Source of the DNA: Eubacteriales bacterium
Lineage (GTDB): Bacteria; Bacillota; Clostridia; Oscillospirales; CAG-272
Direction: 5' to 3'
DNA: 64,000 nucleotides
Assembly (NCBI GenBank): GCA_045596925.1
Contig: JAZODH010000058.1
Span: 5,791 to 69,790 of the forward strand
Shown: piece after piece, positions 1,699 through 45,403 of the stretch
Numbering within the stretch: position 1 is the first letter of the stretch
Layout of the letters: the number at the start of each line of letters is the position of its first letter
Position numbers and translations under genes: made by a program
Notes under the pieces: generated by a model
Told to the model about the DNA's origin: nothing
What the model saw: the letters and a program-made list of their open reading frames with translations, nothing else
Database searches by the model: none

Positions 1699-1732
1699 AT
1701 AACGGCGAGCCTGCGGGCTCGCCGTTATTTTA
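1699..1732. terminator. Bidirectional intrinsic terminator between spoIIIAH (+) and addA (-)
   Basis: Stem AACGGCGAGCC (1701-1711) / GGCTCGCCGTT (1716-1726) with a 4-nt loop. A-rich upstream and T-run downstream. Confidence 0.85.
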
Positions 1733-4700
1733 TATTTGGTCGGTGTCAATGTCCACCGCCTCACCCAGAGGCAGAGAATAGATGCAGACCCTTGACGGTT
1801 CCCGTCCGAAGACCTTCTTCACCGCCTCGCGGTAGTAGGAAAGCTGTTCGCGGTGACGCTCCGTCAGCTTTTTCACCGCCAAAGCGGTATCGTCTTTTTC
1901 TTCCTGCGTCAAATAGTCGGTCTTATAGTCCGCAAGGATCAGCTCGCCGTTTTCGTTCTCAAAAACAAGGTCGATAACACCCTGTACGGCAAGCTTTGTA
2001 TCGCCCAGAGACATTGCTGTCTCCTTACTCTCGGTGAATTTCGATGCAGGCAGAAGCAGGTTGAATCTCTGCTCACGCCAGATCCTCCTCGCCCTTGAAA
2101 GAGAGGCGAAAAATCCGCTCTCAAAAAATCTATCAATCTGCCGAAAATTCATCAGCTCTATGCTTTCTTTGAAGATAAAGCCCTTGTGCGCCAACCTCTG
2201 AGCCTCTGCTCTCGCGCCTGATCGACGAGCATTTTCAAAATCGCAGAACTGCATAAACAGGTGTGTGGCAGTTCCCCTGTCGGCACCGTTTGCCCGCTCC
2301 CTGTCATCCAAAAGGAAGGCGGGCGCAACTTTTATCTCGGGAATTTCGATCTCACGATCGTCGCTCTCCCGCTCGGCGGTGTCAAGCACACCGGGATAAA
2401 GCCTTGAAACAGAAATTTTCGCGGGAACTCCAACAAATCTGTCGTCATATTTGAAATTAAATCTTTCAAGGAACAGACGCTTGTATTCTTCGATCTTTTC
2501 GGGGTCGGCCGCCTCGGTCTCACTCTCCTTCCGTTCAAGCGGGACGGGAGCTTCAACGTCATAAGGCTCAAGGTCGCGCACACAGCACAAGCCCTCTTTT
2601 CCGCTCAGCGCCGCCGAGATCCATATATCCCAGGTCGATGCGTTCATGACCCCGTAGGGGTGGGGATTTCGCGCCAGCTCCGCAATGTTGCGGAAGCGGG
2701 TTTCACCCGTGTACGAGCCGACCAGGAAAAGTCTTTCGCGGGCACGGGTCATGGCAACGTAAAGAACGCGCATTTCCTCCTCGCTGTCTTCCAGCGAATT
2801 TTGCTGTTTTATTGCCTCTGTAACGGGATTACGCAGCACCGCCAGTCCCGTCTTATCGCGGAAGGAGGCGGACACGCCGATCTCCCGTGAAAAAGCCACC
2901 GCACTTGAATCCGATCGATTCATGCTTCTTCCGCAGGAGGTGATAAAGCACACGGGAAATTCAAGTCCCTTTGATGAGTGAACGGTCATTATGCTGACGA
3001 TGTTGCTGTCTCCGCTCCGCCCCGCAGGCTCCACCGTCTGCTTTGCCTCGATTGTGTCTCGGATGAAGCAGATAAAGCTGTAAAGTCCTTTAAACGAGCC
3101 CGACTCAAAGTTCCTTGCGTACTCGTAGAGCACAAGCAGATTGGCGCGCCGTTCGCGAACGGCGTAGTTGTCCTCACCCTCCTGTCCGGGTGTGGCAAAG
3201 GACAGCATATCCGTATCAAAATAAAGGTATCTGAGCAGCTTATCAACGGGCAGGACTCTCGCCTGCTCACGGTAGAGTGCCAGCTTTTCCGAAAAATATC
3301 GTATTTTCTCGGCAATCTCACCCTCCTCACGCTCCGCCGCCTCGCAAAGATTGTCGTAAAGTGAAAGACCCTTGGTCCCTCTTTTTCTTATCCTTGCAAG
3401 CTCGTCCAGGTTGAAGCCGTAAAGAGGCGAGCGCAAAAGCCCCGCCAGGTAAACGTCCTTTTGAGGATTGTCGATGACGCTCAGCAGACAGATGGCAAGA
3501 AGCACCTCGGGGTTTTCAAAATAGCTTTCCGCCGTCAGGGTCGAGCATGGGATACCCGCCCGGTCAAGAGTTTCGGCAAAAGCCGCTGCCGCCGCCTTAG
3601 TCCTTGCCAGGATCGCTATGTCTTTCGGCTCGATCCGACGGAGCACTCCGCGATCCTCGCAGTATTCCTCACCGCGCAAAAGCTCGCTTATTCTCGCCGC
3701 AACGTATTTTGCCTCGTGCTCGACGCCCTTTCCGCCGTACCTCTCTGGGTCAGCCTTGTATTCCTTTGATCCCGCCGTGTAAGAGCGGATCATGGCAAAC
3801 TCTGCCTTTTTCTGCTCGCGCCCTTCGGGAGCTATGTTCTTGGAGCAGACCAGCGCGTCCTTTTCCACGTAACCGATAGAGTTTACGCCCTTTGAAAAGA
3901 TGAAATCCGAGACCGCGTTTGAAAAATCCACCACTCCGCGGTCACATCTGAAATTTTCGGACATATAAATGGCGCACTCGTCTCCCCCGTCCGACGCTTC
4001 CGCGTCGGGGAAGGTGTTTTTGTAGCCCGCAAAGACCGTGGGATTTGCGCCCCTGAAGCGGTAGATGCTCTGCTTGATATCGCCGACCATAAAGCGGTTG
4101 TCGGGACGGGAAATTGCGCGAAAAATCGTGTCCTGCACAAGATCCGTGTCCTGATATTCGTCGATATAGATGGCATCAAACCTCTGCGAGAACTCCTTTG
4201 CGTACTCGGTGGGATTCAGACCCTCGTCCACGAACAGACGCAAGGTCATTCTCTTGTTGTCTGTAAAATCGAGCACGCCCAGTGCGCGCTTGCGCTCGGT
4301 AAACCGACGGTCAAACTCCCGTAGCAGACCGTATATTTCACGGCAGAACAGAGCGTTTCGGCGCAGTATCTGTGCACAAGCCTCCTCGCTCTGGGAGAAA
4401 TATTTGTCCCTTAATTTTACGTAACCCTTTTGCAGGTCGTCCTGCAGGGCGGCAAAATTCACGCTCTCCTCGGTCTTTTTCTTTACGCTTCCTCTTTTGA
4501 TCCTTGCGTAGGAGCAGAAAAGTCTGCGCGCCTCGGCGTAATTCCCCGAAACAATGGCATCTCGGGTGTGGGAAAAATGGTCACGGTCGTAAAGGACCGA
4601 AGGATAATAGCAGGCAAGGTCGCCTCCCTGCGCCTCGTCACAAAGACGGGACACGGCAGAGACGGCGTAGTCGAGAAAATCAAGGCAGAAGCCTTTTACG

Positions 4701-5335
4701 GCCCTGCCGCTTCGGCTCTCAAAATAGGGTGCTTCAGACTCCTGTTCAAGAGTCTCGCCGTCCACCCTGAGAAATTCCAGAAATTCGGGATATCCCGACA
4801 GCTTTTCGTAGAGTGAGATAAGCTCCTTTTCAGCCGAACTCGATCCTCTGCTGTCAAGAAAGCAATCCATGGCAACGGCGAAATCACTGCTCTGCTCATA
4901 TCGCTGAGAAATTAGAGCAGAAAGTACCTCGCGCATGATTATGGCACGCTGATTTGAATCGATTATGCGTGAGGACGCTCCCACCCCCAGCGCCTGGAAA
5001 TTCTCCTTTACCACGTCGTAGTAAAAAGAGTCCATGGTGCAGATCTTTGCCCGACCCAGCTTCAACAACTGGCGGTTAAGATGCCTGTTTGAAGGATCTG
5101 CGGCAAGCGCTTTTGATACTGCCGCAGTGATCTTTGAACGCAGATCGGCTGCCGATGCGTTAGTAAAGGTGACGATAAGAAAACGTCCGATATCCGCAGG
5201 ATTTTCCTTGTCCGTGAGCAGTCGGATTATGCGCTCGGTCAGGGTCGTGGTCTTGCCCGAGCCTGCGGCGGCGGAGACGAGGATAGTTTTATTTCTTGTT
5301 TCTATAGCCTTGTTTTGTGCTGCTGTAAAAGCCAT
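1730..5335 (-). CDS. addA: ATP-dependent helicase/nuclease subunit A (AddA, UvrD-type helicase + C-terminal nuclease)
   Basis: 1201 aa. Walker A AAAGSGKTT near the N-terminus, UvrD-like motifs (DEYQDT), and a C-terminal PD-(D/E)XK-like region (DLVFENENGELILADYKTD). Immediately downstream of addB. Confidence 0.9.
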   Translation of the reverse strand: MAFTAAQNKAIETRNKTILVSAAAGSGKTTTLTERIIRLLTDKENPADIGRFLIVTFTNASAADLRSKITAAVSKALAADPSNRHLNRQLLKLGRAKICTMDSFYYDVVKENFQALGVGASSRIIDSNQRAIIMREVLSALISQRYEQSSDFAVAMDCFLDSRGSSSAEKELISLYEKLSGYPEFLEFLRVDGETLEQESEAPYFESRSGRAVKGFCLDFLDYAVSAVSRLCDEAQGGDLACYYPSVLYDRDHFSHTRDAIVSGNYAEARRLFCSYARIKRGSVKKKTEESVNFAALQDDLQKGYVKLRDKYFSQSEEACAQILRRNALFCREIYGLLREFDRRFTERKRALGVLDFTDNKRMTLRLFVDEGLNPTEYAKEFSQRFDAIYIDEYQDTDLVQDTIFRAISRPDNRFMVGDIKQSIYRFRGANPTVFAGYKNTFPDAEASDGGDECAIYMSENFRCDRGVVDFSNAVSDFIFSKGVNSIGYVEKDALVCSKNIAPEGREQKKAEFAMIRSYTAGSKEYKADPERYGGKGVEHEAKYVAARISELLRGEEYCEDRGVLRRIEPKDIAILARTKAAAAAFAETLDRAGIPCSTLTAESYFENPEVLLAICLLSVIDNPQKDVYLAGLLRSPLYGFNLDELARIRKRGTKGLSLYDNLCEAAEREEGEIAEKIRYFSEKLALYREQARVLPVDKLLRYLYFDTDMLSFATPGQEGEDNYAVRERRANLLVLYEYARNFESGSFKGLYSFICFIRDTIEAKQTVEPAGRSGDSNIVSIMTVHSSKGLEFPVCFITSCGRSMNRSDSSAVAFSREIGVSASFRDKTGLAVLRNPVTEAIKQQNSLEDSEEEMRVLYVAMTRARERLFLVGSYTGETRFRNIAELARNPHPYGVMNASTWDIWISAALSGKEGLCCVRDLEPYDVEAPVPLERKESETEAADPEKIEEYKRLFLERFNFKYDDRFVGVPAKISVSRLYPGVLDTAERESDDREIEIPEIKVAPAFLLDDRERANGADRGTATHLFMQFCDFENARRSGARAEAQRLAHKGFIFKESIELMNFRQIDRFFESGFFASLSRARRIWREQRFNLLLPASKFTESKETAMSLGDTKLAVQGVIDLVFENENGELILADYKTDYLTQEEKDDTALAVKKLTERHREQLSYYREAVKKVFGREPSRVCIYSLPLGEAVDIDTDQI

Positions 5336-5336
5336 A

Positions 5337-8300
5337 TTACGTATCCTCCTCGTCGTCGTATTTCATGGTCAGCGCCCGTCGGCAGACCGCACGCATTCCG
5401 CAGAAATTGCAAGGGCTGTCCTTGCCGTCGGACTCAGCGATCGAAGCGTCGCCGTCCGTCATTTGGGAAATTATCGAGCAGACTACGTGGGACAGCCGTC
5501 GGTTCAGCTCCTCAAAGCCGTCGCCGTCGGAGGTGATGCACTTGTCCTGACTGCCCTGCTTTTTTATGACGCTTTCGTCGCTTGTTACGACACCGCTTCG
5601 GCTTATCTGCCCATCGGCCGACCGCAGGACATCCTCCTCGCCGGTGTCGGCGCTTTCTTTTATACCTCCAAGCTTTGAGGACAGGTAGACCGCGCCGGCG
5701 GGCAAAAGTCTGCCGCCCTCTCCGCAGCCCATTTTAACACGGCTCTCCTCCTGCCCGTAGCAAATGTTGAACAGGTAAAGAAGTATCTGGATATTGAGTC
5801 CGCTCTCAACGTCGTCGATCTTAAAATGCTTTGCGCCCGTTTTGTAGTCCACCACCCTGACGTAAACGTCGTTTCCGCGTTTCATCAGATCCACGCGGTC
5901 AACGATACCGGAAAATACCGCCGTCTTTCCGTTTGCCGTGCGATATTCCGCGGGGCTTATCTGCGCATCCTCACCGTAGCCGATCTTCATTTCAAAGAAG
6001 GTAGGTACAAATCCGCTGCTCTTGAACTCTCCCACCACGTTGCCCGCAAGCACGCGGGAAAGACGCTTTAGGCGTGCAAGAGTGTGACGCATTTTGGCGT
6101 TGTCCGCTTCGCCGGGCAAACGCTCGCGGGCGTATTTTTCGATAAGGTCGGGCAAGGTATCAAGCCTTTGCGCCGCCAGCTCTGCATTAAATCCGTTTTC
6201 GTCGGTAACCGAGCGGATAAACTCCTCCAGCACCGCGTGGACCAGCGTTCCCGTATCGTTGACGGAATAGAAGTTTCGCTCGTCCTTTTGAAGCTTCAGA
6301 ACGTATCTGCAATAGTAATCAAAATGACATTTGACATATTTTTCAAGAGCCGACGGAGACATCGAGAGCCTGTCTCCGAAGACCTCGTCTGCCGTCTCGC
6401 GTGAGATCGATTGTGAATAGGTGTCGCTGTCGAAGATTCTCCTGTAATACCGTCCGCCCTCACCTCCGTCTTCCTTCAGGATCGAGCGCAGGGCGATGCC
6501 CTGAGCACCCTCTCCCAGAAGAGACGCATATTCAAGGGCGATCTTCGGAGTCAGAAGCCTGTCGGCAATAGGTGACTCGGAAAAATCAAATTCCTTCATT
6601 CCCAGGAGCAATTTTATACGGTTGTAAGCCATGGAGGGCAATCTCTCGCCGTCCCCCTGAAGCTTGGCATAGGAATAGGAAACGTACAGACCCACAGAGG
6701 GGCTTGTCACGGCGCGGTAAACGTAGAAAAGCTCCTCGGCACACTTGTCCGTGCCGTCCGAGGAAAGGCTTATGCCAAGAGAAGAAAGCTCTTCTCTCTC
6801 CGTATCGGTCAGAAGACTCTTATCATCGGCGTTTTGCGGAAAAACGCCGTCATTCATACCGATAATAAGCACGTATTTGGGGCGGTCGGCACGAAGCATA
6901 TGCGCCGAACCTACCGTCACCTCGTCGCAGGAGGTGGGAATAGCTCCCACCGTAACATGAGAGAAAACGGTGGTCAGAGCCTCCTCCAGCTCCTGCGAGG
7001 TAAAACGCTCTCCGTCGTTTTCAAAGCTCGCTATCATATCGAGAATATCTATCACCGAATTGTAAAGGGTAACGGTCTCGGCGGCATTTCTTCTCATACC
7101 GTCATCGGCGTATCTTTCGGCCTCTGCCGAAAGCCGGCCCGCCACGTCAAGGGCGCACATATAATCGAAAACCGCACGGGCAAGATCAGCATTTGTGCGT
7201 GCCCGATCAAGCGCGCCGAAAAAAGCGGACAAGGGCTCGCTCACCCGACGCCTTGCTCGGTTGACGCACTCAAGATAGGCAAGATCCTCCTCACGAAGCT
7301 CTCCCAAATAGGAGTGAGGATTCATGGTCCAGTCGTCTCCGCAAAAGGCGCGTCCCGACAGGCTCCAGCGCCATACGTAATCCTCAAAAAGGTCGGAGTC
7401 CCTCTGGTACGCTCCGCAAAGACCCGTTTTCACGTAAGAAATAACGTCCTCGGTCTGCCAGGAGCGGTTTTTGATGCGCAGAGCGCAGAGAAGCAGTTTT
7501 ATAAGGGGCTTGGACGACACGTCGGTGCGAGCGGACATATAAAATGGTATCCCCGCCTTTTCAAGGGAGTGGTCGATGATCCCTCTCCAGGACTCGGCAC
7601 TTCGGGCAATAACGGCGATCTCGCCGTATTTTGCACCCTCCCGCACAAGTCGTCCGATGTGGCATGCCGCCGCCTCAGCTTCCTCGTATTCGTTGGCACA
7701 TTTAACGAGAGTGACGCTTCCGTCATCGGGCAAGACTTCGCCGCCAACTGCCGAAAAGCTCCACAAATGGCGCTCTAGCACACGCAATGCCTCACTTTCG
7801 GTCCGTCTGTTGTCGGGCAGATAGGTCACACAGGGCTTGATATTTTTCTTTTCCGCCTGCAAAAGAAAGAAATCTACCGTCTTTTTCGACGCCTCAAAGT
7901 GCATGGGCAGAGGCTTTTGGTCGCAGAAGCAAACAGCCGCCGTCACGCTGTGCGCGCCGTCGATCATTCGGGAGATTATTCTGTGCTCCTGCTCAGTGAA
8001 GCTCAAAAAGGAATCTATGTAGACACTCATGCCGTCAAAAAAATCGTTTTCCGCCAGCACCGAGTCAAGCCTTGAAAGCTCGTCCGAGCCGTCACCGTAG
8101 GCCTCAAGTGACGCTTCATACGCCGCACAGATAAGAGAAATATCCCTCAGTTTTCCGCCCAGAGTACTGTTTTCCTCCAGCTTGTCTGCCGCCCTCTCAA
8201 GCTCGGCGGGACTTACACAGCTCGCCTTGAATTCCTCTGCCGCCGAAAGCATAAGAGAAATAAGAGACAGGTCTCCTCTGACCCCGCCGTATTTGCGCAA

Positions 8301-8606
8301 AAAGGGACGGAGAGAGGTCACCGTGTTCCACATGGTCAGCGCCTTTACGCCCTCGGAGATCCCGTGGCGTGAAAGCCCGCCGTACTGTCTGAAAACGCGG
8401 TTTGCAAGGCGCGTAAAATTCAGCACCTCAAAGCAGAGCTGTGCCGAGGGCGGCAAAAGAGAGAGCATTCGCCTCTCCGCCGACACCGTCTCCTGCTCGG
8501 GAACAAGCAAAATGACCTGCCGTCCGCTTTCAATATCCTTTTTTATATTTTCTTCGATCTGGGTAGTCTTTCCGCTGCCCGATCCGCCAAGTATCAAATT
8601 AAGCAT
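5337..8606 (-). CDS. addB: ATP-dependent helicase/nuclease subunit B (AddB) with C-terminal Fe-S nuclease domain
   Basis: Walker A GGSGSGKTT sits 7 aa after ATG 8606. Cys cluster KCHFDYYC ... CNFCGMRAVC at the C-terminus. The track ORF extends to TTG 8645, which would form a TTGA overlap with the upstream stop, so the start is ambiguous. Confidence 0.85.
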   Translation of the reverse strand: MLNLILGGSGSGKTTQIEENIKKDIESGRQVILLVPEQETVSAERRMLSLLPPSAQLCFEVLNFTRLANRVFRQYGGLSRHGISEGVKALTMWNTVTSLRPFLRKYGGVRGDLSLISLMLSAAEEFKASCVSPAELERAADKLEENSTLGGKLRDISLICAAYEASLEAYGDGSDELSRLDSVLAENDFFDGMSVYIDSFLSFTEQEHRIISRMIDGAHSVTAAVCFCDQKPLPMHFEASKKTVDFFLLQAEKKNIKPCVTYLPDNRRTESEALRVLERHLWSFSAVGGEVLPDDGSVTLVKCANEYEEAEAAACHIGRLVREGAKYGEIAVIARSAESWRGIIDHSLEKAGIPFYMSARTDVSSKPLIKLLLCALRIKNRSWQTEDVISYVKTGLCGAYQRDSDLFEDYVWRWSLSGRAFCGDDWTMNPHSYLGELREEDLAYLECVNRARRRVSEPLSAFFGALDRARTNADLARAVFDYMCALDVAGRLSAEAERYADDGMRRNAAETVTLYNSVIDILDMIASFENDGERFTSQELEEALTTVFSHVTVGAIPTSCDEVTVGSAHMLRADRPKYVLIIGMNDGVFPQNADDKSLLTDTEREELSSLGISLSSDGTDKCAEELFYVYRAVTSPSVGLYVSYSYAKLQGDGERLPSMAYNRIKLLLGMKEFDFSESPIADRLLTPKIALEYASLLGEGAQGIALRSILKEDGGEGGRYYRRIFDSDTYSQSISRETADEVFGDRLSMSPSALEKYVKCHFDYYCRYVLKLQKDERNFYSVNDTGTLVHAVLEEFIRSVTDENGFNAELAAQRLDTLPDLIEKYARERLPGEADNAKMRHTLARLKRLSRVLAGNVVGEFKSSGFVPTFFEMKIGYGEDAQISPAEYRTANGKTAVFSGIVDRVDLMKRGNDVYVRVVDYKTGAKHFKIDDVESGLNIQILLYLFNICYGQEESRVKMGCGEGGRLLPAGAVYLSSKLGGIKESADTGEEDVLRSADGQISRSGVVTSDESVIKKQGSQDKCITSDGDGFEELNRRLSHVVCSIISQMTDGDASIAESDGKDSPCNFCGMRAVCRRALTMKYDDEEDT

Positions 8607-8641
8607 TTGATTTAAACCGTCCTCCAAAATCAGATTTGGTT

Positions 8642-9463
8642 TCAATTATCTTCAAAGAGCTTCAGATTTCTCAGGATCGTCTCTTTTCCGCGCCAGGAAT
8701 ATGCGCGGTCGTCAAATTCCTCATCGGTCATTTTCTCAAGTTCCTCGACCGTCAGGGTCGGCAGACAGCTTTCCGAGAAAAAATCCACGGGAGAATAGAT
8801 GGTTCCGTCTTTTTTCGCCCTTTGGGTATGGGGACACGCCGTCTGGCACCTGTCACAGCCCCACACAAGCCCGTGTCGAAGGATCTTCTCCTTTTCCACC
8901 TCGGTCAGCTCACCTTTCTTCTGGGTCAGGGCCGAAAGGCACTCCCCCACCGAAAGGTCGACGGGACAAGCACATGAGCACAGCCCGCAGTTTTCACAAA
9001 ACCGGATCTCCTTGATCTCACTCTGCAGTTCAAGGTCTGTGATGATCTCACCGAGAAAAACGAATGAAGAATATTTTTCGGTAATGAGCAGGTGGTTTCG
9101 CCCGATGATGCCGAGTCCCGCCTTCGCCGCCCCGTTCACCTCGTCAATAGGGGAATGATCCGAGAAAAAGCCGAATTTTGAGAGCGGAAAATCCTTTGCA
9201 AATGCCTGCGAAAACCGCTGACAAAGCTCTTTAAAATACAGATGATAGTCCTGCGGGACAGCGTAAAGCGAGACGTTTCGGTTTTCACTTTCCGCCGCGC
9301 GACTGTAATAGGGTACAGCGAAGATCACTGCGCTTCCACCCGTCACACCGCACCTCTCAAGCAGATACGGACGAATGATCTTGCAGTCGTCAAGAGGAAG
9401 AAATCCGAAAAGCTCGATCCTCTCCTTTTCAAAAAAATCTCTGAAAAACTGCTCTCCGCTCAT
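8642..9463 (-). CDS. Epoxyqueuosine reductase (QueG)-like 4Fe-4S protein, short form
   Basis: 273 aa. GLGIIGRNHLLITEKYSSFVFLGEIITDL, CENCGLCSCACP and GCDRCQTACPH resemble the QueG core. Its ATGA overlaps the abcF stop. Confidence 0.6.
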   Translation of the reverse strand: MSGEQFFRDFFEKERIELFGFLPLDDCKIIRPYLLERCGVTGGSAVIFAVPYYSRAAESENRNVSLYAVPQDYHLYFKELCQRFSQAFAKDFPLSKFGFFSDHSPIDEVNGAAKAGLGIIGRNHLLITEKYSSFVFLGEIITDLELQSEIKEIRFCENCGLCSCACPVDLSVGECLSALTQKKGELTEVEKEKILRHGLVWGCDRCQTACPHTQRAKKDGTIYSPVDFFSESCLPTLTVEELEKMTDEEFDDRAYSWRGKETILRNLKLFEDN

Positions 9464-11406
9464 ACCTCGGTCTCCTCGTAGATCTCAAGCAGACGCTCCT
9501 CGATCTCGTTTTTTCGTCCGTCAAGCTCGGCGGCTCTTACGTAGTCGCTGGCGGCGTCGCCGTAAAGCTCCGCTTCGATCTGCTCAAGCTCGCTTTCCAG
9601 CTTTTTTGCTTCAAGACGGAGCTTTTCCATGCGCTTTTGCTCACGGCGAATGTCCGCCTGAGAACGCTTCTTTTCAAGGTAATTGGTCTTCTCCTCGGTC
9701 TGCTCCTTTACGGCAAGCTCGGGGTGGGAAGCGTTGTAAGCGTCGACGCGCTTTTGTCTGAATTCCCTGTATTCGTCGTAACCACCCTGCCCTGCGTGAC
9801 TGATGCGATAATCAAGCAAGTCGCCCGTGTCGCAGAAATCGCCGGGTGCGATCTCAAGGATCCTGGTTGCCAGCCGGTCGATAAAATATCTGTCGTGGGA
9901 AACGGTGACAATGGTTCCGTCAAATTTTTCAAGCGCCTCCTCCAAAACCTCACGGGAATTTATGTCCAGGTGGTTGGTAGGCTCGTCCAAAACGAGCAGA
10001 TTCATGTGGGACAGTATCAGCTTGCAAAGGGTGAGCCTTGCGCGCTCGCCGCCGCTGAGAACTCCCACCTCCTTGAAAACATCCTCTCCGATAAATCTGA
10101 AGAGCGCAAGAGCGTTTCTTATTTCGGTCTCCCTCATCGTGGGGTATGCGTTCCAGATCTCGTCAAGAACGGTATTTGCGGGATCAAGATTCTGGTTTTC
10201 CTGGTCGTAATAGCCGATCTCCACGTTGTAGCCCGTCTCAACAAAGCCTCCTGTGGCGACGGTTTTGCCCAGAAGTATCTTTATAAGGGTGGATTTTCCG
10301 CATCCGTTTGCGCCCACAATGAACACACGCTCGCGCTTCTTTATCATAAATGAGATCTTGTCAAAAAGCTTCTTTTCGCCGTATGCCATGGACAGATTTT
10401 TCGTCCAGATAACGTCGTTTCCGCTCTCGCCGCTATGGTTGAAGCTCATGCGGATAGACTTGGGATCGTTCTCCGGCTTGTCCAGCTTCACCATGCGGTC
10501 AAGGGCCTTCTGACGGCTCTCGGCGGCGATGATGTTGCGCTCGCGATTCCACGCCCTCTGTTGCTCGATGTAAGCCTCCTGGCGCGCGATCTCCCTCTGC
10601 TGATTTTTGTAGTGCCTTTCCTGGATCTCCCGATCCTTTTTTCTTTGCTCCATGCTCTGGGTATAAGAGCCGTTGTAAAGCTTCCCGCGGTGGTTTCCGA
10701 CGTAAAGCGTTTTATTTGTGATCTTGTCAAGGAAATATCGGTCGTGGGAGACCACGATCACGTTCTTTTTATAGGAAACAAGATAATTTTCAAGCCAGGT
10801 AAGCGTCTCGATGTCCAGGTGGTTGGTTGGCTCGTCAAGTATAAGGATGTCCGGCTCGCGGCAAAGCTGACGCGCCAAAGCAAGTCTCGTTCTCTGACCC
10901 CCGCTGAGAGCGTCCACGTGCAGGGACTGTTCCCGCTCGTTAAAGCCCATTTTAGACAGAATTGAGGCGCAACGGGAACGGAATTCAAGTCCGCCCGCGT
11001 CAACGAATCGAGTGTAAAGCTCGGTATATTCCGCCGCTCTTGCCACTTGGTGAGGGTCGTTTTCGTCCTTCATTTTTTCTTCAAGCATTGCCAGCTTCCG
11101 CTCGGCAGCCAGATGCTCGGGGAAAGCGGTATACATCTGCTCGATGACCGTCCCTCCGCACTCCTCGGAGACCTCAAAGGCCCCCTCCTGAGTGAGTATT
11201 CCCACAGTCTTGTCCTTTGAAATGTAAACACTTCCATGATCGGGCTCAAGCTCGCCCGTGATCAGGCGCAAAAGGGTGGATTTTCCGCTTCCGTTGACGC
11301 CGATGACGCCCAGCTTGTCCCCCTCTTCAAGGGAAAATGAAATATTTTCTATAATTACCGTCGTCCCCACCGAAAAGGAGAGGGACTCAACGCTGATCGA
11401 TGTCAT
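9460..11406 (-). CDS. ABC-F family ATPase (two ABC domains plus charged C-terminal coiled coil)
   Basis: 648 aa with two Walker A motifs (GVNGSGKST, GANGCGKST), two LSGG signatures and no TM segments. Confidence 0.85.
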   Translation of the reverse strand: MTSISVESLSFSVGTTVIIENISFSLEEGDKLGVIGVNGSGKSTLLRLITGELEPDHGSVYISKDKTVGILTQEGAFEVSEECGGTVIEQMYTAFPEHLAAERKLAMLEEKMKDENDPHQVARAAEYTELYTRFVDAGGLEFRSRCASILSKMGFNEREQSLHVDALSGGQRTRLALARQLCREPDILILDEPTNHLDIETLTWLENYLVSYKKNVIVVSHDRYFLDKITNKTLYVGNHRGKLYNGSYTQSMEQRKKDREIQERHYKNQQREIARQEAYIEQQRAWNRERNIIAAESRQKALDRMVKLDKPENDPKSIRMSFNHSGESGNDVIWTKNLSMAYGEKKLFDKISFMIKKRERVFIVGANGCGKSTLIKILLGKTVATGGFVETGYNVEIGYYDQENQNLDPANTVLDEIWNAYPTMRETEIRNALALFRFIGEDVFKEVGVLSGGERARLTLCKLILSHMNLLVLDEPTNHLDINSREVLEEALEKFDGTIVTVSHDRYFIDRLATRILEIAPGDFCDTGDLLDYRISHAGQGGYDEYREFRQKRVDAYNASHPELAVKEQTEEKTNYLEKKRSQADIRREQKRMEKLRLEAKKLESELEQIEAELYGDAASDYVRAAELDGRKNEIEERLLEIYEETEV

Positions 11407-11419
11407 TTTTTACTCCTAA

Positions 11420-12055
11420 TTAAAATCTTATCTTTAATTCCTTTGCAACGCCCAAAATCCGCGCACTTCCCGCCTCAAAATCCTCGGGGGTCAGCTCGAT
11501 GGGTTCGTAATCCTCATTTTCGGGCATGAGCAATATTCTCCTGCCGTCTCGATGGAAACGCTTGACGGTCGCACTGTCGTCTCCCACGAGACAGGCAACG
11601 ATGTTCCCCTCCTCGGCGTATTGCTGCTTGCGGAAAAGAACCAGGGAACCGTCAACCATTCCGCAGTCCTTCATGCTGTCGCCGCGGACGGACAAAAAGA
11701 AGTAATCCGACACGTCCTCACCGCGCCTGATGTCCGCCGACTCGTAGCCCAGCAAAGTCTCGTTGGTAACGATAGGCGCACCTGCCCGTATCTCGCCCAC
11801 GATGGGCACGCGTAAAGCGCCCCTGGGGCGGGAGGTGCTCTCAATATCCCGCACAGGCATAAAATCCTCGCCCATGAGAGATTCAAGGGACACGTCGAAA
11901 TATGCCGCTATTTTTTGCATTTTGTCGAGCTTTGGGGTGGAACGTCCGCTCTTCCAATCGCTGAAGGTGGAATTTGAAATTCCCGTCTCCTTTGCCACCT
12001 TGTAGGTGGTCGTCCCTCTTTCGACAAGAAGTTGTTCAAAATTTACATAACTCAT
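11420..12055 (-). CDS. XRE-type HTH repressor fused to an S24 (LexA/CI-like) self-cleaving peptidase domain
   Basis: N-terminal HTH (TTYKVAKETGISNSTFSDWKSGRSTP). C-terminal S24 motifs VRGDSM (Ser) and ATVKRF (Lys). It lacks the winged-helix N-domain of LexA proper. Confidence 0.8.
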   Translation of the reverse strand: MSYVNFEQLLVERGTTTYKVAKETGISNSTFSDWKSGRSTPKLDKMQKIAAYFDVSLESLMGEDFMPVRDIESTSRPRGALRVPIVGEIRAGAPIVTNETLLGYESADIRRGEDVSDYFFLSVRGDSMKDCGMVDGSLVLFRKQQYAEEGNIVACLVGDDSATVKRFHRDGRRILLMPENEDYEPIELTPEDFEAGSARILGVAKELKIRF

Positions 12056-12085
12056 TCTATCGAGTCCTGCCTTATCTTGTAGATT

Positions 12086-12114
12086 TTGCTTAAAGTTTTA
12101 TTTTTTGCTAAAAT
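12086..12114 (+). promoter_or_regulatory. Candidate promoter P0 (TTGCTT-17-TAAAAT with TGn)
   Basis: TTGCTT 12086-12091, 17-nt spacer ending TGC, TAAAAT 12109-12114. The region is AT-rich, so false positives are possible. Confidence 0.35.
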
Positions 12115-12118
12115 GGGG

Positions 12119-12147
12119 TTGACAATATTACGGATTTGCGATATAAT
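12119..12147 (+). promoter_or_regulatory. Perfect consensus sigma-A promoter P1 driving the Zn-ribbon/sigma-like genes
   Basis: TTGACA 12119-12124, exact 17-nt spacer, TATAAT 12142-12147. Confidence 0.7.
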
Positions 12148-12160
12148 TACGCCATACTAT

Positions 12161-12174
12161 TTCGGTTTACCGAA
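12161..12174. promoter_or_regulatory. Candidate operator: inverted repeat TTCGG-N4-CCGAA between the two facing promoters
   Basis: TTCGGTTTACCGAA is flanked by direct ACTATT copies and lies in the predicted overlap of the P1 and P2 transcripts. Confidence 0.4.
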
Positions 12175-12196
12175 CTATTACGGGTTTCATAATCAC

Positions 12197-12225
12197 ATTA
12201 TAACCCCATTTATCGAATTTGTCAA
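12197..12225 (-). promoter_or_regulatory. Perfect consensus sigma-A promoter P2 driving the XRE/S24 repressor
   Basis: Read on the minus strand: TTGACA (12225-12220), 17-nt spacer, TATAAT (12202-12197). Confidence 0.7.
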
Positions 12226-12267
12226 GTAATATCAAAAAACACGAAAAAGAAAGGTAAATGACAAAAA

Positions 12268-12531
12268 ATGTGCAAATTCTGTAAGCAGGTACATTGCCCC
12301 GAGAACTGCCCAAGCTACGGGCTTTTGCCACCCGATTATTCGAACAGACCCCGACGTTTTTGCAGAATTTGTCTGGGGCTTATCCCCTCGGGCGACGTGG
12401 CGTACAGATTTGGAAAAAAGTTTGTTTGCTTTAACTGCACCGAAGAAATGGACGTTCCCGATCTAATGCGGATTTGCGAAATCGAGAACCGCCGCGAGCT
12501 TATCTCAATCTTGGGATTCAGCGCCGACTGA
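12268..12531 (+). CDS. Small Cys-rich (putative zinc-ribbon) protein, unknown function
   Basis: 87 aa with CxxC...CxxxC...CxxC...CxxC (CKFC, CPENC, CRIC, CFNC). First gene downstream of P1. Confidence 0.55.
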   Translation: MCKFCKQVHCPENCPSYGLLPPDYSNRPRRFCRICLGLIPSGDVAYRFGKKFVCFNCTEEMDVPDLMRICEIENRRELISILGFSAD

Positions 12532-12542
12532 GGAGGATCTTT

Positions 12543-12941
12543 ATGCCAAAGACCAATACCGGCAAGTACGCCGACGTGAAAAATTTTCTCGAAAGCTACC
12601 TTATAAATAAAAAAATGATCGAGATGCTGGCATACGAGCGGGAATATTTCGGAGCACAAAGTCAGGGAGACGGTTTTCTCATGCTCCCGGGCGGCGACGA
12701 GGTGATCTTACGCTCGAAAATGTTCAACGTGCGAAAATTTATAACCACCCTTGACAACAACAACTGCAAATTACTTCTATATTACCACTACATACGCGGA
12801 AACTCGGTCGAAAAATGCGCCGAGCTGTTGGGGATCAGCCGCACAAGCGGATTTCGTCTGAAACGCCGCGCGCTTGAGCTGGCGGCGGACAAATATTATG
12901 CTCTGTTCGATCCCGACGGAAAGCCTGTTTCTTCTTTTTGA
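12543..12941 (+). CDS. Sigma-70 region-4-like / phage late-activator-like (DUF1492/ArpU/RinA-type) DNA-binding protein
   Basis: ATG 12543 follows GAGGAGGATCTTT. The C-terminal HTH LLLYYHYIRGNSVEKCAELLGISRTSGFRLKRRALE resembles sigma region 4. The track ORF start 12474 overlaps the previous gene and lacks an RBS. Confidence 0.6.
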   Translation: MPKTNTGKYADVKNFLESYLINKKMIEMLAYEREYFGAQSQGDGFLMLPGGDEVILRSKMFNVRKFITTLDNNNCKLLLYYHYIRGNSVEKCAELLGISRTSGFRLKRRALELAADKYYALFDPDGKPVSSF

Positions 12942-12972
12942 TAAATTTTTATTGTTTTTCGATAAAAAACCA

Positions 12973-13001
12973 TTGACAAACGAGTTTTTATGTGGTAAAA
13001 T
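12973..13001 (+). promoter_or_regulatory. Candidate promoter of the DUF2975-yozG-like operon
   Basis: TTGACA 12973-12978, 17-nt spacer ending TGG (extended -10), TAAAAT 12996-13001. Confidence 0.6.
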
Positions 13002-13042
13002 GCAGTCACAGTCAAATTTTACCCGAAAAGGAAGAAACGAAA

Positions 13043-13516
13043 ATGAAAGACCAAACGAACAAAATACCTTTCGCCACCGTCATAGCCATGGCAATGACGA
13101 TCCTGACCGCACTGCTGGTCGTGGCAATGACTATTTTTCTGCCCGCAATTCTCGATTTCTATCTTGAATACGTCAGCGGCGGGAACGCAAGCTATATCAG
13201 CACTCACAAAACCCCCGTCCTTATCCTGCTCTACGCGGCGCTCATTCCCGTTTACGCGGCGGTATCGGGACTGTTCCTTCTTCTCTCAAACGTTCATCGC
13301 GACCTGATCTTCACCCGCTCGTCGGTCCGTCTTATCAGCCTGCTTTCGGCTTGCTGTTACGCAGAGTCGGTGATATGCGCCGTCCTTTCCCACTATTTCA
13401 TTCTGGGTGCTGTGCTCTGCTTTGCGGCGCTTCTTCTCGGAACTCTTATGCTGGTAGTCCGCTCGGTAATCGCGCAGGCTGCCGAGATAAAAGCGGAAAA
13501 CGATTTTACCGTGTGA
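13043..13516 (+). CDS. DUF2975-family membrane protein (YoaS-like)
   Basis: Four hydrophobic helices and the characteristic C-terminal AEIKAENDFTV tail. Paired with a YozG-type HTH gene. ATG 13043 is preceded by GGAAGAAACGAAA. Confidence 0.7.
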   Translation: MKDQTNKIPFATVIAMAMTILTALLVVAMTIFLPAILDFYLEYVSGGNASYISTHKTPVLILLYAALIPVYAAVSGLFLLLSNVHRDLIFTRSSVRLISLLSACCYAESVICAVLSHYFILGAVLCFAALLLGTLMLVVRSVIAQAAEIKAENDFTV

Positions 13517-13525
13517 GGTGGCATC

Positions 13526-13747
13526 ATGATAATAGTTAATCTTGACGTTATGATGGCAAAGCGGAAGATCTCCCTGGGCGAGCTTGCGGACAGGGTAGGA
13601 ATCACCCCCGCAAACCTGTCTATTCTGAAAACAGGAAAGGCCAAGGCCGTCCGCTTTTCCACCCTTGATAAGATCTGCAGGATCCTTGACTGTCAGCCTG
13701 CGGATATTCTCGAATACGAATACTCCGAAAACGAAATGGAGGATTGA
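13526..13747 (+). CDS. YozG-type (Cro/C1) HTH transcriptional regulator
   Basis: 73 aa. MAKRKISLGELADRVGITPANLSILKTGKAKAVRFSTLDKICRILDCQPADILEY is the typical YozG-family sequence. Confidence 0.85.
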   Translation: MIIVNLDVMMAKRKISLGELADRVGITPANLSILKTGKAKAVRFSTLDKICRILDCQPADILEYEYSENEMED

Positions 13748-13749
13748 AT

Positions 13750-15291
13750 ATGGATAACAGCTTTGCTCCTCAGCCAACTCCCGTCACCCGCACCGAGTAC
13801 GGCAAGACCGACGTGTCTTTTGCGTGGATCTCGATACTGCTGGGCTATCTTATGGTGCTGGCGTGGCCCGGTGCGCAGTACCCGCTGGGAATGTTTCTTT
13901 TCACCGCGCTCTGCTACGGCGTCACCTTCTATTACGTCAAAAAGCAAAACGGCAATCTGCGCGGCGCGCGTTTATCTCTGCCCGTCAGCGCGCTCGTGCT
14001 CAATTTCGGGCTTCTCATAAATTCAAACCACACAGTCTTACGTTCGGTAGTAGCATACAGCTTTTTCGCTTACGTTTTGTGGGTCTACACCGCCTTTGAC
14101 GGCGAAAAGGAGCGTTCCCCCTTTGACGCATACCTTGTGCCGGGGCTGGGCAAAGCCCTGACGGTGCTTCCCTTTGGCTCCTTTTTCTCTGTTTTTGAGA
14201 GCAGCAGTCAGATAAAAAGCACAACGGGAAAGCAGATAACAAAAACTCTGCTTCGCATCGTTCTCGGTCTTGCCATCGCTGTGATCCCCACGATAATCAT
14301 CATGCTTCTCCTGTCATTTGACGAGGGCTTTTCTCGAATAGTAGACAGGATTTTTGACTTCGACCTGTCGGGAATTTTCCGCCACATCGGAAAATTCATT
14401 TTGGGAATCCCCGTTGCCATGTACCTTTTCGGACTTCTTTATTCCGCGTCCTCGGGCAGATACGGCCGCGGGATCAACCGCGAAAAATGCGACAATGCAG
14501 CAAAAAAGGTCAGATTCACGCCCGTAGCTATGGTCTGCGCCGCTCTGACCCCCATTATCTGCCTTTACGGTATATTCTTCTTTGCCCAGCTTGAATATTT
14601 TATTTCCGCGTTTTCGGGCACTCTTCCCCCGCACTTCACCTACGCTCAATACGCCCGTGAGGGCTTCTTCCAGCTTTGCATCGTTTCGGTACTGAATCTC
14701 ATAATGCTGGCGTGCGCCTACCTTTTCTGCCGCCGACGGGACAAAGCACCCTTGATCTTAAAGATCTACTGCACCGTTCTCTCCGCGCTGACACTGGTAC
14801 TCATCACAACTGCACTTTCCAAGATGATAATGTACATCGACACCTACGGGCTGACCGTCCGCCGCGTGCTTGCAAGCTGGTTTATCATTCTCATTGCCGC
14901 CGTTTTTATCTGCATCGTGGTTGCCATATTCGTAAAAAGCTTCAACCTGACAAAATCTTTGTTCTTCGTTTTCCTCGTGCTTTTTGCCCTGCTGGTTTTC
15001 TGCAACGTGGACGGAATGTGCTATTCCTACAACGCCAACCGTTGCATTGAGGGAACTCTTGACATCTCGGCGTTCGAGGGTCCCGAATACAGATACGGCA
15101 TCCACATAGATGAGTTTGCCGTCACCGCCCTTGACAAGATCGCCCGTGAGACTCCCGACTCAAAAAGCGGTGTCTGGGCAAAGAATCAGCTTCAGGCTGT
15201 GGCAAACCACGATCCTTACCTCGAAGACGGCTTCTTTTCGCAAAATCTACCTCGGATTTTACGTGAACACGTGCTGAATAAGTATAGATAG
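13750..15291 (+). CDS. Large polytopic membrane protein (DUF4153/DUF4173-like), unknown function
   Basis: About 513 aa with more than 10 hydrophobic segments. ATG 13750 lies 7 nt after GGAGG. The family assignment is from memory only. Confidence 0.65.
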   Translation: MDNSFAPQPTPVTRTEYGKTDVSFAWISILLGYLMVLAWPGAQYPLGMFLFTALCYGVTFYYVKKQNGNLRGARLSLPVSALVLNFGLLINSNHTVLRSVVAYSFFAYVLWVYTAFDGEKERSPFDAYLVPGLGKALTVLPFGSFFSVFESSSQIKSTTGKQITKTLLRIVLGLAIAVIPTIIIMLLLSFDEGFSRIVDRIFDFDLSGIFRHIGKFILGIPVAMYLFGLLYSASSGRYGRGINREKCDNAAKKVRFTPVAMVCAALTPIICLYGIFFFAQLEYFISAFSGTLPPHFTYAQYAREGFFQLCIVSVLNLIMLACAYLFCRRRDKAPLILKIYCTVLSALTLVLITTALSKMIMYIDTYGLTVRRVLASWFIILIAAVFICIVVAIFVKSFNLTKSLFFVFLVLFALLVFCNVDGMCYSYNANRCIEGTLDISAFEGPEYRYGIHIDEFAVTALDKIARETPDSKSGVWAKNQLQAVANHDPYLEDGFFSQNLPRILREHVLNKYR

Positions 15292-20225: not shown

Positions 20226-20254
20226 ATTATATCAAAAAAAAAACGTAATGTCAA
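20226..20254 (-). promoter_or_regulatory. Consensus promoter of holB-yaaT with a T10 tract in the spacer
   Basis: Minus strand: TTGACA (20254-20249), 17-nt spacer containing T10 (A10 at 20234-20243 on +), TATAAT (20231-20226). Confidence 0.6.
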
Positions 20255-20356: not shown

Positions 20357-20393
20357 AGGCTGAATTGTTATATAAAATATGGGAAAGGGTTTT

Positions 20394-23300
20394 ATGGCTC
20401 GGAACATGACAAGGAAATCACGTATTCATACCTTTATTTTTTTGCTTATGCTGATAGCTTCCGTTTTTGCGGCAACCGTCTTTGCGAACAGCGCCGACGG
20501 AACCATCTCGGTCACTTCATCAGATATAACCAGCGGAAAGGTCACCGCCACGGTGAAAATTTCGGGCAACCCCGGCATTTCGGGCATGAGCCTGAAGCTT
20601 TCCTTTGACCACACGAAGCTGACACCCGTGTCCTTTGACACGTCAAAGGGTATATACTCCGAGGCATACTCAAACGTTACCGAGGATGGCGCAGACCTGA
20701 CGGCAATGGATGCTGTCACCTATTTCTTCGCATCTTCCGACGATATCAAAAAGGACGGCGAGCTTTTCAGCGTCACCTTCAGTGTATCGGAGGCGGCGGT
20801 GGGCACCACCGACCTCAGCATCTCCTTTGCACAGGGTGGCGTGACCAACTCAAAGTATGAAAACCTCAACCCCGACGTGTCGGGCTGCACCATCGACATT
20901 TCAAGCGCAAGATACCCCGCGGGCGTTATAACTCTTGAGAGCGAGCACCTGGGGCTTGATTACTACCGCGTCAACGTGGGTCTTTACGGCAATCCCGGTA
21001 TTGCGGCGCTCAGATTCAAGCTGGTGCTTTCAAATTCTATCGTCGTCCGCTCCGTGGACTTTGACGGCATATTTGATAAGGTCACCTCAAACTCCACTCA
21101 GCCCGGCGTGACCCTTTCGAGCCTTCATGACATCACATACAACTACACAAACACCGAAAATTCAACAAAAACGGGTAAGCTTTTCAGCTTCACCTTCCGC
21201 CTGGTCGACGGCTTCGGTCGGGTAAGCGTATCCTATGCAAACGGAGATATCGTAAATTCCGAGCTTGAAATGCTCTCTCCCCACAGATCCGCTCTGACCT
21301 TCGGTACACTTGACGTTGCGACCGTTTCCTTTGACGCAAATACAGATCTGTCCCTGAACGACGAGACCCCTGCGGAGATCACGTTCGTCAAAAACGGATA
21401 CATCACTCTTCCCTTCTGCCCCGAGCGTGAAGACAAGGCGTATTTCCTCGGTTGGTCGGAATCAAAGAATGCCACATCTGCCGCCTATAAGCCCGGAGAA
21501 AAATACCTTGTCACACAGGACGTGACTCTTTACGCCGTCTGGACGGTCAGGACCTACACGGTGACCTACAACGCAAACGGCGGGTCAAACGCCCCTGCCA
21601 CGCAGACCAAGGTCCACGGCGCTCCCATAACCCTTTCAAGCGCGATACCTACAAGAGCCAATTACGATTTTGTGGGCTGGTCGGCGCTCAAAAACGGCAC
21701 GGCGGCGGATTACGCGGCAGGTGACGTTTTCGCCGAGAACGTTTCAGTCACCCTTTACGCCGTTTGGCGTCCCCATGAATATAAAATAATCTTTGATGCA
21801 AACAGCGGCGCAAACGCGCCTGCGCCTGCTACAAAATTCTACGGCACCGATATAACTCTCCCCGCGGAGATCCCCTCAAAGCCGGGCTTCGGATTTGCGG
21901 GTTGGTCTGACACTGAAACGGGCAGCGCAAAATATCTCCCCGGCGCGACCTACGCAGCAAACGGGAACGCTACTCTCTACGCCGTTTGGACAAGCGACAA
22001 GTACGACGTCACCTTTGACGCAAACGGAGGAACAGGCGCGCCCGCAGTACAATCTCCGGCACAGACTTTCGATCTTTTCCTACCTCTGACCACCCCCGAA
22101 AAGATCGGCTACTCCTTCCTTGGCTGGTCCGAGTCAAAGAGTGCGACCACGGCCGACTACAAGCCGGGCGACGTATTCTCAAAGAAGACCTCAACGACCC
22201 TTTTCGCAGTATGGGAGATCGCAAAATACACCGTAACCTTTGACGTAAACGGAGGCGAGGGCAGCTTTACTCCTCTCACCTTCAGCTTCGGCGGCTCGGC
22301 AACGCTTCCCACCGCAGCCCCCACAAAAACCGGATTCGATTTTCTTGGCTGGGCGGAAAGTCCCGATGCCGTGACGGCGGAATATACCTCGGGCTCCGCC
22401 TACGCGTACAACCGCTCCGCTACCCTCTATGCAGTCTGGAGCGCGCATAAATATAAGGTAACCTTTGTGGCAAACGGCGGAACGAATGCACCCGCCGCAC
22501 AGTACAAGCTCCACAATACAGACCTTCGTCTGTCCGCCGTGAAGCCCATCATGGAGGGCTACGTTTTCCTTGGCTGGGCAGAGAGTACCGACGCTCTTGA
22601 GCCTGCTTACAAGGCGGGCACCCTTTACACGGAAAACAGAGATATCACTCTCTACGCCCTGTGGACCCCTGCCACCTACACGGTCACCTACGACATCAAC
22701 GGCGGTAACAGCGGAACGGTGGGTACAGAAGAAAAGATCCACGGAAAGCCCCTGGTCATCGCTTCCTTCTTCCCCACGAAAACAGGCTACACCTTCCTGG
22801 GCTGGGCATATTCCCCCGATGCTCTGACTCCCGATTTCAAGGCAGGCGATCTCTACCGCGAGGAGGCGGACGTGACCCTTTACGCCGTCTGGACGGCAAA
22901 GGAATACACGGTAACATACGATGCAAACGGCGGCACGCTTGCCCCCGGAGCACAAAAGAAGCCCCACGGTGCAACCCTCACCTTAGTAAACGTCAAGCCC
23001 GAGTACAAAGGCTACGTCTTTATCGGCTGGTCTACCGCCCCTGACGGAACGACGGTCGAATACCTGCCGGGTGACCTGTACAACGACGACGCCGATCTTA
23101 CCCTCTACGCCACCTGGTGCGAGGAAGCAAGCGCGTTAAACACTCAACTGAACGTAAGATCAATGGGAGGCGGCAAGGTGAAGGTGGAGATCCTTCTGAC
23201 CTCGAACCCCGGAATCACCTCCCTGTCCCTCAGACTTGATTTTGACCGCACCAAGGTCAAGCTGGTCGAGATCGCCTCAAACGAGGACGACGAGCCGGAA

Positions 23301-45374: not shown

Positions 45375-45403
45375 TTGACAAGACCACTTCACCGTGATAT
45401 AAT
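45375..45403 (+). promoter_or_regulatory. Perfect consensus promoter of the yerC-his operon
   Basis: TTGACA 45375-45380, 17-nt spacer, TATAAT 45398-45403. Confidence 0.65.

Follow-up and report, generated by a model that had tools for sequence, protein, structure and literature searches.

Two perfect promoters that face each other across a short intergenic region raise the question of what such an arrangement does, and whether it belongs to a phage or to the host chromosome. We consider this question for a locus in a 64,000-nt stretch of DNA (hereafter, the window) from an Eubacteriales bacterium of the CAG-272 lineage (assembly GCA_045596925.1, contig JAZODH010000058.1, positions 5,791 to 69,790 of the forward strand). 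Here, the promoter P+ points to the open reading frame (ORF) of a Cys-rich protein and the gene of a DUF1492-like protein, and the opposing promoter P- points to the genes of a LexA-like repressor and an ABC-F ATPase. Both promoters are perfect matches to the sigma-A/sigma-70 consensus. The explanation that we prefer, and regard as rather probable, is a damage-controlled switch in which a self-cleaving repressor is combined with two perfect head-on promoters that compete for RNA polymerase. The coordinates of all features are given in Table 1.

Conservation and geometry of the promoter pair

The positions and the facing orientation of the two promoters, as proposed earlier from the letters of the window alone (the sequence-only reading), agree with the sequence in full. 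The -10 hexamers are head-on and separated by 49 bp (12148-12196). Transcription is predicted to start about 7 nt past each -10 hexamer, at approximately 12154 for P+ and 12190 for P-, and both predicted start bases are purines on the transcribed strand. For comparison, 80 loci were fetched via alignment of DUF1492-like homologues from species-representative genomes, all of them metagenome-assembled genomes of gut or rumen Clostridia. The head-on pair, on whose presence in orthologous loci the sequence-only reading had made its proposal depend, is observed in 72 of the 80. Both promoters are perfect in 63 loci and one is perfect in eight, the rest being single-base variants, and the spacer is 17 bp in every pair. 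In the alignment of these loci, the hexamer columns are at least 90% conserved, compared with 30-60% for the columns of the P- spacer and of the region between the promoters. Retention of the hexamers while the P- spacer and the gap drift indicates selection on promoter function rather than on a long inverted repeat. With the hexamers and the 17-bp spacing kept in about 99% of columns, comparison of sequences supports strong selection on the hexamer pairs for their role as promoters.

The alternative that the hexamers match by chance may draw on the A+T-rich composition of the intergenic region, where promoter-like matches are enriched (28 found in the promoter scan vs 9.1 expected). Such an origin is vanishingly improbable and is already refuted by conservation, since the hexamers, the 17-bp spacing, and the orientation are kept in 63 of the 72 loci, although the proteins of these loci have only 36-68% identity to those of the window. 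In the window, TTGACA-N17-TATAAT with at most one mismatch occurs six times (four times perfectly), compared with 0.11 in shuffled sequences. A single perfect promoter would be unremarkable here, because such promoters are quite frequent in this lineage: 532 kb of related loci contain 43 besides those of the pair, rRNA promoters among them. What is remarkable is the recurrence, across related loci, of two perfect promoters placed head-on within 107 bp.

The lineage itself shows an unusually high frequency of perfect or near-perfect TTGACA-17-TATAAT promoters, about one per 12-16 kb. Elsewhere in the window, they are found at 20226-20254 (-), 45375-45403 (+), and 12973-13001 (+), and they are seen at many sites in the related loci L004-L080. 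They include rRNA and tRNA promoters with A-rich upstream elements; others lie just after the DUF1492-like gene.

The distance between the two promoters defines a common form and a variant one. The common form, seen in 55 loci, measures 71-75 bp from -35 to -35; only 13-17 bp separate its -10 hexamers, and its predicted starts fall within about 4 nt of each other. RNA polymerase protects roughly positions -55 to +20 of a promoter. With this footprint and this gap, the two promoters cannot be occupied together in these 55 loci. The window shares a 107-bp span with its close relatives L002 and L003, other members of the same subgroup having spans of 98-155 bp. The window is a member of a derived subgroup, with a gap of 49 bp. 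The sequence-only reading had put the overlap of the two RNAs at about 35 nt; this stands for the window, where we infer about 36 nt, but the common form would overlap by only about 4 nt, and the long overlap is a peculiarity of the subgroup.

An overlap of this length brings to mind antisense control, in which complementary 5' ends pair and block translation or trigger decay, as in the RNA-IN/RNA-OUT system of IS10. The relatives with spans of 98-155 bp would fit it as well, with overlaps of roughly 27-84 nt. We nevertheless consider antisense control highly improbable, because the inferred overlap shrinks to about 4 nt in 55 of the 72 loci and falls short of either ribosome-binding site in the window; neither predicted leader folds better than its shuffled versions (z -1.07 and -0.61), and no Rfam match is found. 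With the same leader scores, an RNA element was rejected as a candidate, the Rfam search of 11300-13100 returning only a chance match to a long non-coding RNA (E 0.68). The principle conserved among these loci is more likely that two polymerases compete for the same DNA than that antisense RNAs pair or polymerases collide at long range.

Several smaller elements of the window do not extend to its closest relatives. A 10-nt inverted repeat, AAATGGGGTT/AACCCCATTT, is not kept in L002 and L003. Two elements listed in the sequence-only reading, a third copy of ATTACG (12146-12151) and a weak TTGCTT-17-TAAAAT promoter (12086-12114), are likewise present in the window and absent from these two relatives. 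We treat all three as presumably due to chance or of recent origin.

Natural variants of the locus make it possible to assign each promoter to its genes. Four loci (L023, L031, L032, and L040) contain the Cys-rich/DUF1492 operon without an adjoining repressor or ABC-F gene; in these, P+ and its operators are kept and P- is absent. P- is present where a repressor or ABC-F gene stands to the left, and in ABC-F loci that have no repressor it is retained and directly faces the ABC-F gene. The loss of P- together with the leftward genes, and the retention of P+, indicate that P- serves the leftward genes and that the rightward operon is transcribed from P+ as its regulated promoter. The four operon copies (L023, 3127-3480; L031, 233-590; L032, 3590-4351; L040, 1760-2408) lie elsewhere in the chromosome, close to recG-, luxS-, or glmS-like genes, for example. 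Their control would be in trans.

The repressor and its predicted operators

When the loci are aligned on P+, one quasi-palindrome is observed, ATATT(T/A)CGG-A(A/T)(A/T)T-(C/G)CGA(A/T)AT, with the core TTCGG-N4-CCGAA. In about 50 loci, it occupies two fixed sites 31 bp apart, O1 at +11..+24 (in the P+ spacer) and O2 at -20..-7 (upstream), both counted relative to the P+ -35. A 22-nt operator matrix built from the O1 and O2 sites of related loci picks out OA and OB alone from the 64-kb window, and shuffled sequences give no match at 14 bits or more. At the position of OA, a match is present in most of the approximately 60 loci that carry the repressor. The second site, OB, is the sole match to TTCGG-N4-CCGAA with at most one mismatch in 64 kb, and it is kept in L002 and L003. 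Counted from the predicted starts, OB spans about +8..+21 of P+ and +17..+30 of P-, and OA spans about +49..+62 of P-; the two sites are 32 bp apart, centre to centre. Scans of the window with the core and with the matrix reveal no site beyond this locus.

The subgroup of the window has lost the upstream O2 and carries operators between the promoters instead. A further candidate there, OC, scores higher in the relatives (11.5 bits in L003 and 18.6 bits in L002) and offers weak evidence for a site. The repeats listed in the sequence-only reading are all present, namely the palindrome (12161-12174), the ACTATT copies around it (12156-12161 and 12174-12179), and the 12-mers TATTACGG(A/G)TTT (12126-12137 and 12176-12187). 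The 12-mers and the ACTATT copies appear to be the left halves and flanks of TTCGG-N4-CCGAA operators. Thus, the suggestion that the ATTACGG motifs and the palindrome serve as operators holds as a prediction: the motifs correspond to left halves of the one quasi-palindrome and the palindrome to a complete copy, and this sequence is fixed with respect to P+ in about 50 loci.

One more candidate operator is intragenic and lies in the Cys-rich ORF. The equivalent place scores 10-22 bits in ten relatives (L002, L004, L006, L007, L009, L013, L027, L070, L074, and L077). In 13 loci, the codons for the R-I-C-E peptide encoded at this site are nearly fixed as CGG/CGC-ATT-TGC-GAA, whereas the rest of these ORFs uses ATT, GAA, and CGS only as minority codons. 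Fixation of codons against the usage of the ORFs themselves suggests a constraint at the DNA level, perhaps a third operator. Its centre is 338 bp from that of OA and 306 bp from that of OB, and looping between the intragenic site and OA or OB is conceivable. In one subgroup, an operator-like sequence, ATATTATGCAAAACCGAAATAT, is also seen just upstream of the P- -35, 11-35 nt outside it, in seven loci (L012, L020, L021, L025, L045, L053, and L066), a placement that mirrors O2 at P+. The subgroups seem not to be alike in their direct control of P-.

Most likely, the protein that binds TTCGG-N4-CCGAA is the repressor, acting as a dimer. It matches the Pfam families Peptidase_S24 (PF00717; 84 bits with a cut-off of 23.3) and HTH_3 (38.7 bits), as well as the phage repressor family phrog_4, and its best PDB matches are LexA C-terminal domains (E 3e-16). 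In an alignment with the C-terminal domain of Escherichia coli LexA, Ala91-Gly92, Ser127, and Lys165 are all in place, and the segments VGEIRAG, GDSM, and TVKR pair with VGRVAAG, GMSM, and TVKR of LexA. Among 51 repressor orthologues, A91, G92, and S127 are 100% conserved, the TVKR motif containing K165 is conserved in at least 90%, and the helix-turn-helix is highly conserved. The protein falls outside canonical LexA: the TIGR00498 model gives 100.2 against a cut-off of 110.95 and matches only residues 73-195, and the N-terminus is of the HTH_3/XRE type rather than a LexA winged helix.

In some relatives, the place of this repressor is apparently taken by LexA itself. Seven loci without the repressor gene (L024, L026, L028, L037, L039, L042, and L049) keep the head-on pair and have a canonical LexA (Cheo) box, AGAACAnnTGTTC (GAAC-N4-GTTC), at +41..+45 from the P+ -35; OB, at +43 in the window, holds the same position. 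An eighth locus, L008, has the same box (3880-3895) and a degenerate P-. Among the related loci, Cheo boxes are found only at the eight without the repressor, and the 64-kb window has no CGAAC-N4-GTTCG with at most one mismatch. The controlling repressor, XRE-S24 or LexA, appears to have been swapped at an otherwise conserved head-on pair. Since the same operon is apparently under LexA in related species, the XRE-S24 form, too, is most economically read as damage-inducible. The damage-inducible switch suggested by the sequence-only reading is made plausible by the conserved cleavage and catalytic residues of LexA and by the LexA box in repressor-less loci, although RecA-dependent cleavage is here only presumed.

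The exchange of repressors also agrees with a simpler scenario, plain SOS-type co-repression without meaningful interference. In this case, shared operators would shut both strong promoters, damage would open both, and the layout would be merely compact. The LexA-box variant follows the same logic, operators are positioned inside the two promoters or downstream of them, spans range between 71 and 256 bp, and the lineage has many strong consensus promoters. On balance we find co-repression alone possible but unlikely, because all 72 loci keep the promoters head-on, under either repressor, at the price to each mRNA of a long leader running through the opposing promoter. Moreover, with the -10 hexamers 13-17 bp apart in 55 loci, simultaneous occupancy is physically implausible and interference is hard to avoid.

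Table 1. Promoters, predicted operators, and genes of the locus (positions in the window)
Feature	Position	Strand	Description
P+	TTGACA 12119-12124, 17-nt spacer, TATAAT 12142-12147	+	12/12 in promoter scan
P-	TTGACA 12225-12220, 17-nt spacer, TATAAT 12202-12197	-	12/12 in promoter scan
Predicted 5' overlap of the two transcripts	12154..12190		about 36 nt, inferred from -10 positions
OA, predicted operator, TACGGATTTGCGAT	12129..12142		in P+ spacer, +11..+24 from first base of -35; 29.2 bits (22-nt matrix)
OB, predicted operator, perfect TTCGG-TTTA-CCGAA	12161..12174		21.9 bits
OC, candidate weak operator, TACGGGTTTCATAA	12179..12192		over predicted P- start; 4.6 bits in the window
Candidate intragenic operator, TGCGGATTTGCGAA	12467..12480		within Cys-rich ORF, encodes R-I-C-E; 6.3 bits
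Repressor gene	11420..12055	-	211 aa, XRE-type helix-turn-helix and S24 (LexA-like) domain
ABC-F ATPase gene	9460..11406	-	13 nt downstream of repressor gene
Cys-rich protein gene	12268..12531	+	87 aa, MCxxCxxxxCPxxCP and CxxC...CxxC; first in P+ operon
DUF1492-like gene	12543..12941	+	132 aa, sigma-region-4-like C-terminal domain; second in P+ operon

A chromosomal module and its genes

The order of genes, with ABC-F and the repressor leftward and the Cys-rich ORF (where present) and the DUF1492-like gene rightward, is kept in about 60 loci. Identity to the window proteins across loci is 54-92% for the repressor and 36-92% for the DUF1492-like protein. In more than 60 species, the module stands in synteny beside the ABC-F gene, and beyond it come housekeeping genes that vary from locus to locus. 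Near the module, neither the window nor the related loci show genes for phage structural proteins, integrase, or terminase. For the DUF1492-like protein, IMG/VR contains no confirmed relative, and a tblastn search against 50,697 phage genomes gave no hit. Conserved synteny and the lack of viral relatives in these two collections show the module to be chromosomal and vertically conserved, not a prophage. Thus, the equation of the locus with a lysis-lysogeny switch of the 186/P2 type, implied by the sequence-only reading, has to be given up, the likeness being in mechanism only.

Some traits of the module do recall phages. The repressor matches phrog_4, the DUF1492-like protein matches phrog_36 and phrog_248, and the 12-13 kb bin has a lower G+C content (0.427 vs about 0.52). 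DUF1492 (LtrB) proteins are known as activators of late operons in Gram-positive phages (PMC3753634), and a prophage or mobile-element switch of the 186/P2 kind, or its remnant, could use the DUF1492 protein in this role. Given the synteny with ABC-F and housekeeping genes, the lack of phage genes nearby, and the lack of relatives of the sigma-like protein in IMG/VR and among the 50,697 phage genomes, we judge such a switch clearly improbable. Ancient domestication of a phage module is possible. The DUF1492-like protein resembles LtrB in its distant sequence similarity, its small size, and its sigma-region-4-like helix-turn-helix. In contrast to LtrB, its gene is chromosomal, has no adjoining terminase gene, and follows or is fused to that of the Cys-rich protein; LtrB genes stand just upstream of terS, whereas the downstream genes here are unrelated housekeeping genes that differ by locus.

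The DUF1492-like protein scores 20.2 bits with Pfam DUF1492 (PF07374), just below the cut-off of 21.5, and several of its homologues carry a precomputed PF07374 hit. Its match to phrog_36 has an E-value of 3e-8, and phrog_248 is annotated as 'transcriptional activator'. The AlphaFold model (mean predicted local distance difference test score, pLDDT, 83.8) contains a long N-terminal helix, a disordered loop, and a C-terminal three-helix unit. In a fold search, the C-terminal approximately 60 residues of the model superpose on sigma region 4 structures with a root-mean-square deviation of about 2.1 A, while a sequence-profile search of the PDB gave no significant match, sigma included. Because the model has no region 2, the protein is not a sigma factor. 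The label 'sigma-like' given to it in the sequence-only reading is justified for the region-4-like C-terminal domain but not for the protein as a whole.

The Cys-rich protein has no family match in family searches. A word-index search recovered only close homologues, the wider family being recovered from ORFs in related loci, and an equivalent Cys-rich ORF is present in 46 of 73 loci. In L051 (1851-2426) and L052 (3755-4327), the Cys-rich and DUF1492-like proteins are fused in one ORF of about 190 aa, which suggests that the two work together physically. PADLOC has no match for either of them, and for the repressor and the ABC-F protein it gives only generic helix-turn-helix and ATPase matches.

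On the left side, the ABC-F protein is assigned to the ribosomal-protection-like ABC-F family of NCBIfam (455.5 bits, cut-off 380), and its gene is probably co-transcribed with the repressor gene from P-. Further left, a QueG-like gene, addB, and addA are tightly packed. From the repressor to AddA (1730-12055, -), the gaps between the five genes are 13, -4, -4, and 1 nt, and a terminator scan between these genes found none that was convincing. The P- transcript may be about 10 kb long and include the genes of the double-strand-break repair nuclease AddAB.

On the right side, the module is followed by genes of a DUF2975 membrane protein, a small HTH_26 regulator, and a DUF4153 membrane protein (12992-15291, +). 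These three genes are not part of the conserved unit; the DUF2975 and HTH_26 proteins are found by tblastn only in the closest relatives (L001-L003). Farther on, the window encodes a 1122-aa protein with cohesin and dockerin domains and eight Listeria-Bacteroides repeats (20379-23747, +). It looks like a cellulosome-type surface protein and fits a host among the fibre-degrading gut or rumen Clostridia.

Proposed competition of polymerases and comparison with known switches

The scheme that we propose rests on predicted start sites, repressor binding, cleavage, and interference, and on presumed activation targets of the DUF1492-like protein. P- would transcribe leftward the repressor and ABC-F genes and, in the window, may continue into the queG-like gene, addB, and addA, and P+ would transcribe rightward the genes of the Cys-rich and DUF1492-type proteins. 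In the repressed state, P+ would be shut by repressor bound to OA, within the P+ spacer, and to OB, which lies at the P+ start some three helical turns from OA; the weak OC at the P- start may add one more site. As every operator lies downstream of the P- start, the repressor would also act as a roadblock that partly stops transcription from its own promoter. DNA damage would lead to LexA-like self-cleavage of the repressor at Ala91-Gly92, and P+, once freed, would compete with P-. In most relatives, where the starts coincide, one polymerase would be accommodated at a time and interference would act by exclusion. In the window, the two footprints would just touch and the RNAs overlap, and interference would act by front-end clash and collision. 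Firing of P+ would delay re-synthesis of the repressor, and the induced state would be sharpened or prolonged. The switch may be bistable.

Several points weigh against this scheme. The window has no upstream O2, and its OC is very weak. Operator layout differs between subgroups, so autoregulation may differ too. Given the -35 to -35 spans of 71-256 bp across loci, strict mutual exclusion cannot be essential everywhere, and in the window both polymerases could probably bind simultaneously. Perfection of the consensus, being common in the lineage, need not signal a 'tug of war'. Finally, some LexA-like proteins are RecA-independent, for example IrvR, which is described in this way (PMC7101444).

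One of the closest known parallels is provided by the Ecl18kI restriction-modification system, where face-to-face promoters of divergent genes compete and their starts are 50 bp apart (PMC2760811). Ecl18kI and SsoII combine divergent genes, inward promoters, and a palindromic operator on one promoter that is bound by the product of one of the genes. The window has divergent genes, inward promoters, and, on one promoter, a predicted operator for a self-encoded regulator. In Ecl18kI, shutting one promoter has been shown to relieve the other, an effect that is predicted here, and the 50-bp distance between starts compares with about 36 bp inferred for the window. In contrast, Ecl18kI is a plasmid system regulated by a methyltransferase rather than by a self-cleaving S24 repressor. 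Its Pr promoter is non-canonical and weak-looking, whereas here both promoters are perfect and in most relatives the starts coincide.

Another parallel is phage 186, whose pR and pL promoters face each other and interfere (PMC3675496). As with these promoters and with Pe and Pc of P2, the promoters converge and their transcripts are expected to overlap, and the repressor of the 'outward' promoter would indirectly aid its own promoter by relieving interference. Unlike the strong lytic and weak lysogenic promoters of 186, however, the promoters here are, by sequence, equal and perfect in 63 of the 72 loci, and they reside in a chromosome rather than in a phage. The CI repressor of 186 assembles as a 14-mer wheel. 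It is not known to be an S24 protein, and SOS induction of 186 is mediated by a separate antirepressor, Tum, whereas the repressor considered here carries its own cleavage domain.

With LexA and the Cheo-box regulon of Firmicutes, the locus shares the S24 domain, the Ala-Gly site, the Ser-Lys dyad, a palindromic operator, and probable negative autoregulation; moreover, orthologous operons in seven related species have a true Cheo box. It differs from them in the XRE helix-turn-helix, in the operator TTCGG-N4-CCGAA instead of GAAC-N4-GTTC, and in having a single target in 64 kb. XRE-S24 'LexA-like' regulators are represented by HdiR and IrvR (named in PMC8565304, PMC7101444, PMC9578287). Like repressors of the lambda CI type, they have the same domain architecture and act as dedicated local regulators.

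The searchable literature contains no description of a LexA-like repressor combined with face-to-face promoter interference at such a locus. Both components are of known kinds, and it is their combination that appears to be new. We know of no repressor of the HdiR, IrvR, or lambda CI type with conserved head-on consensus promoters or with a DUF1492/Cys-rich target operon. A bolder form of the competition scheme, which we offer tentatively and hold to be doubtful, is a toggle that operates across the gut Clostridia lineage with one polymerase at a time. Equal perfect promoters would share a start region and the XRE-S24 repressor would tip the balance between them, having replaced LexA or been replaced by it. 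The output would be a new damage-response pair, the Cys-rich protein and a sigma-region-4-like protein that redirects transcription, and the intragenic operator would allow looping.

Switches that use promoter competition, rather than a second repressor, as their second arm are few, and the known ones are mostly from phages or plasmids. Here, the design is kept in the chromosome of dozens of species, with both promoters at the exact consensus. The natural series of spacings (71-256 bp) and the exchange of the XRE-S24 repressor and LexA make models of transcriptional interference directly testable. For the abundant uncultured Clostridia of gut and rumen, the locus points to an unstudied output of the damage response, formed by a sigma-region-4-like DUF1492 protein and its Cys-rich partner.

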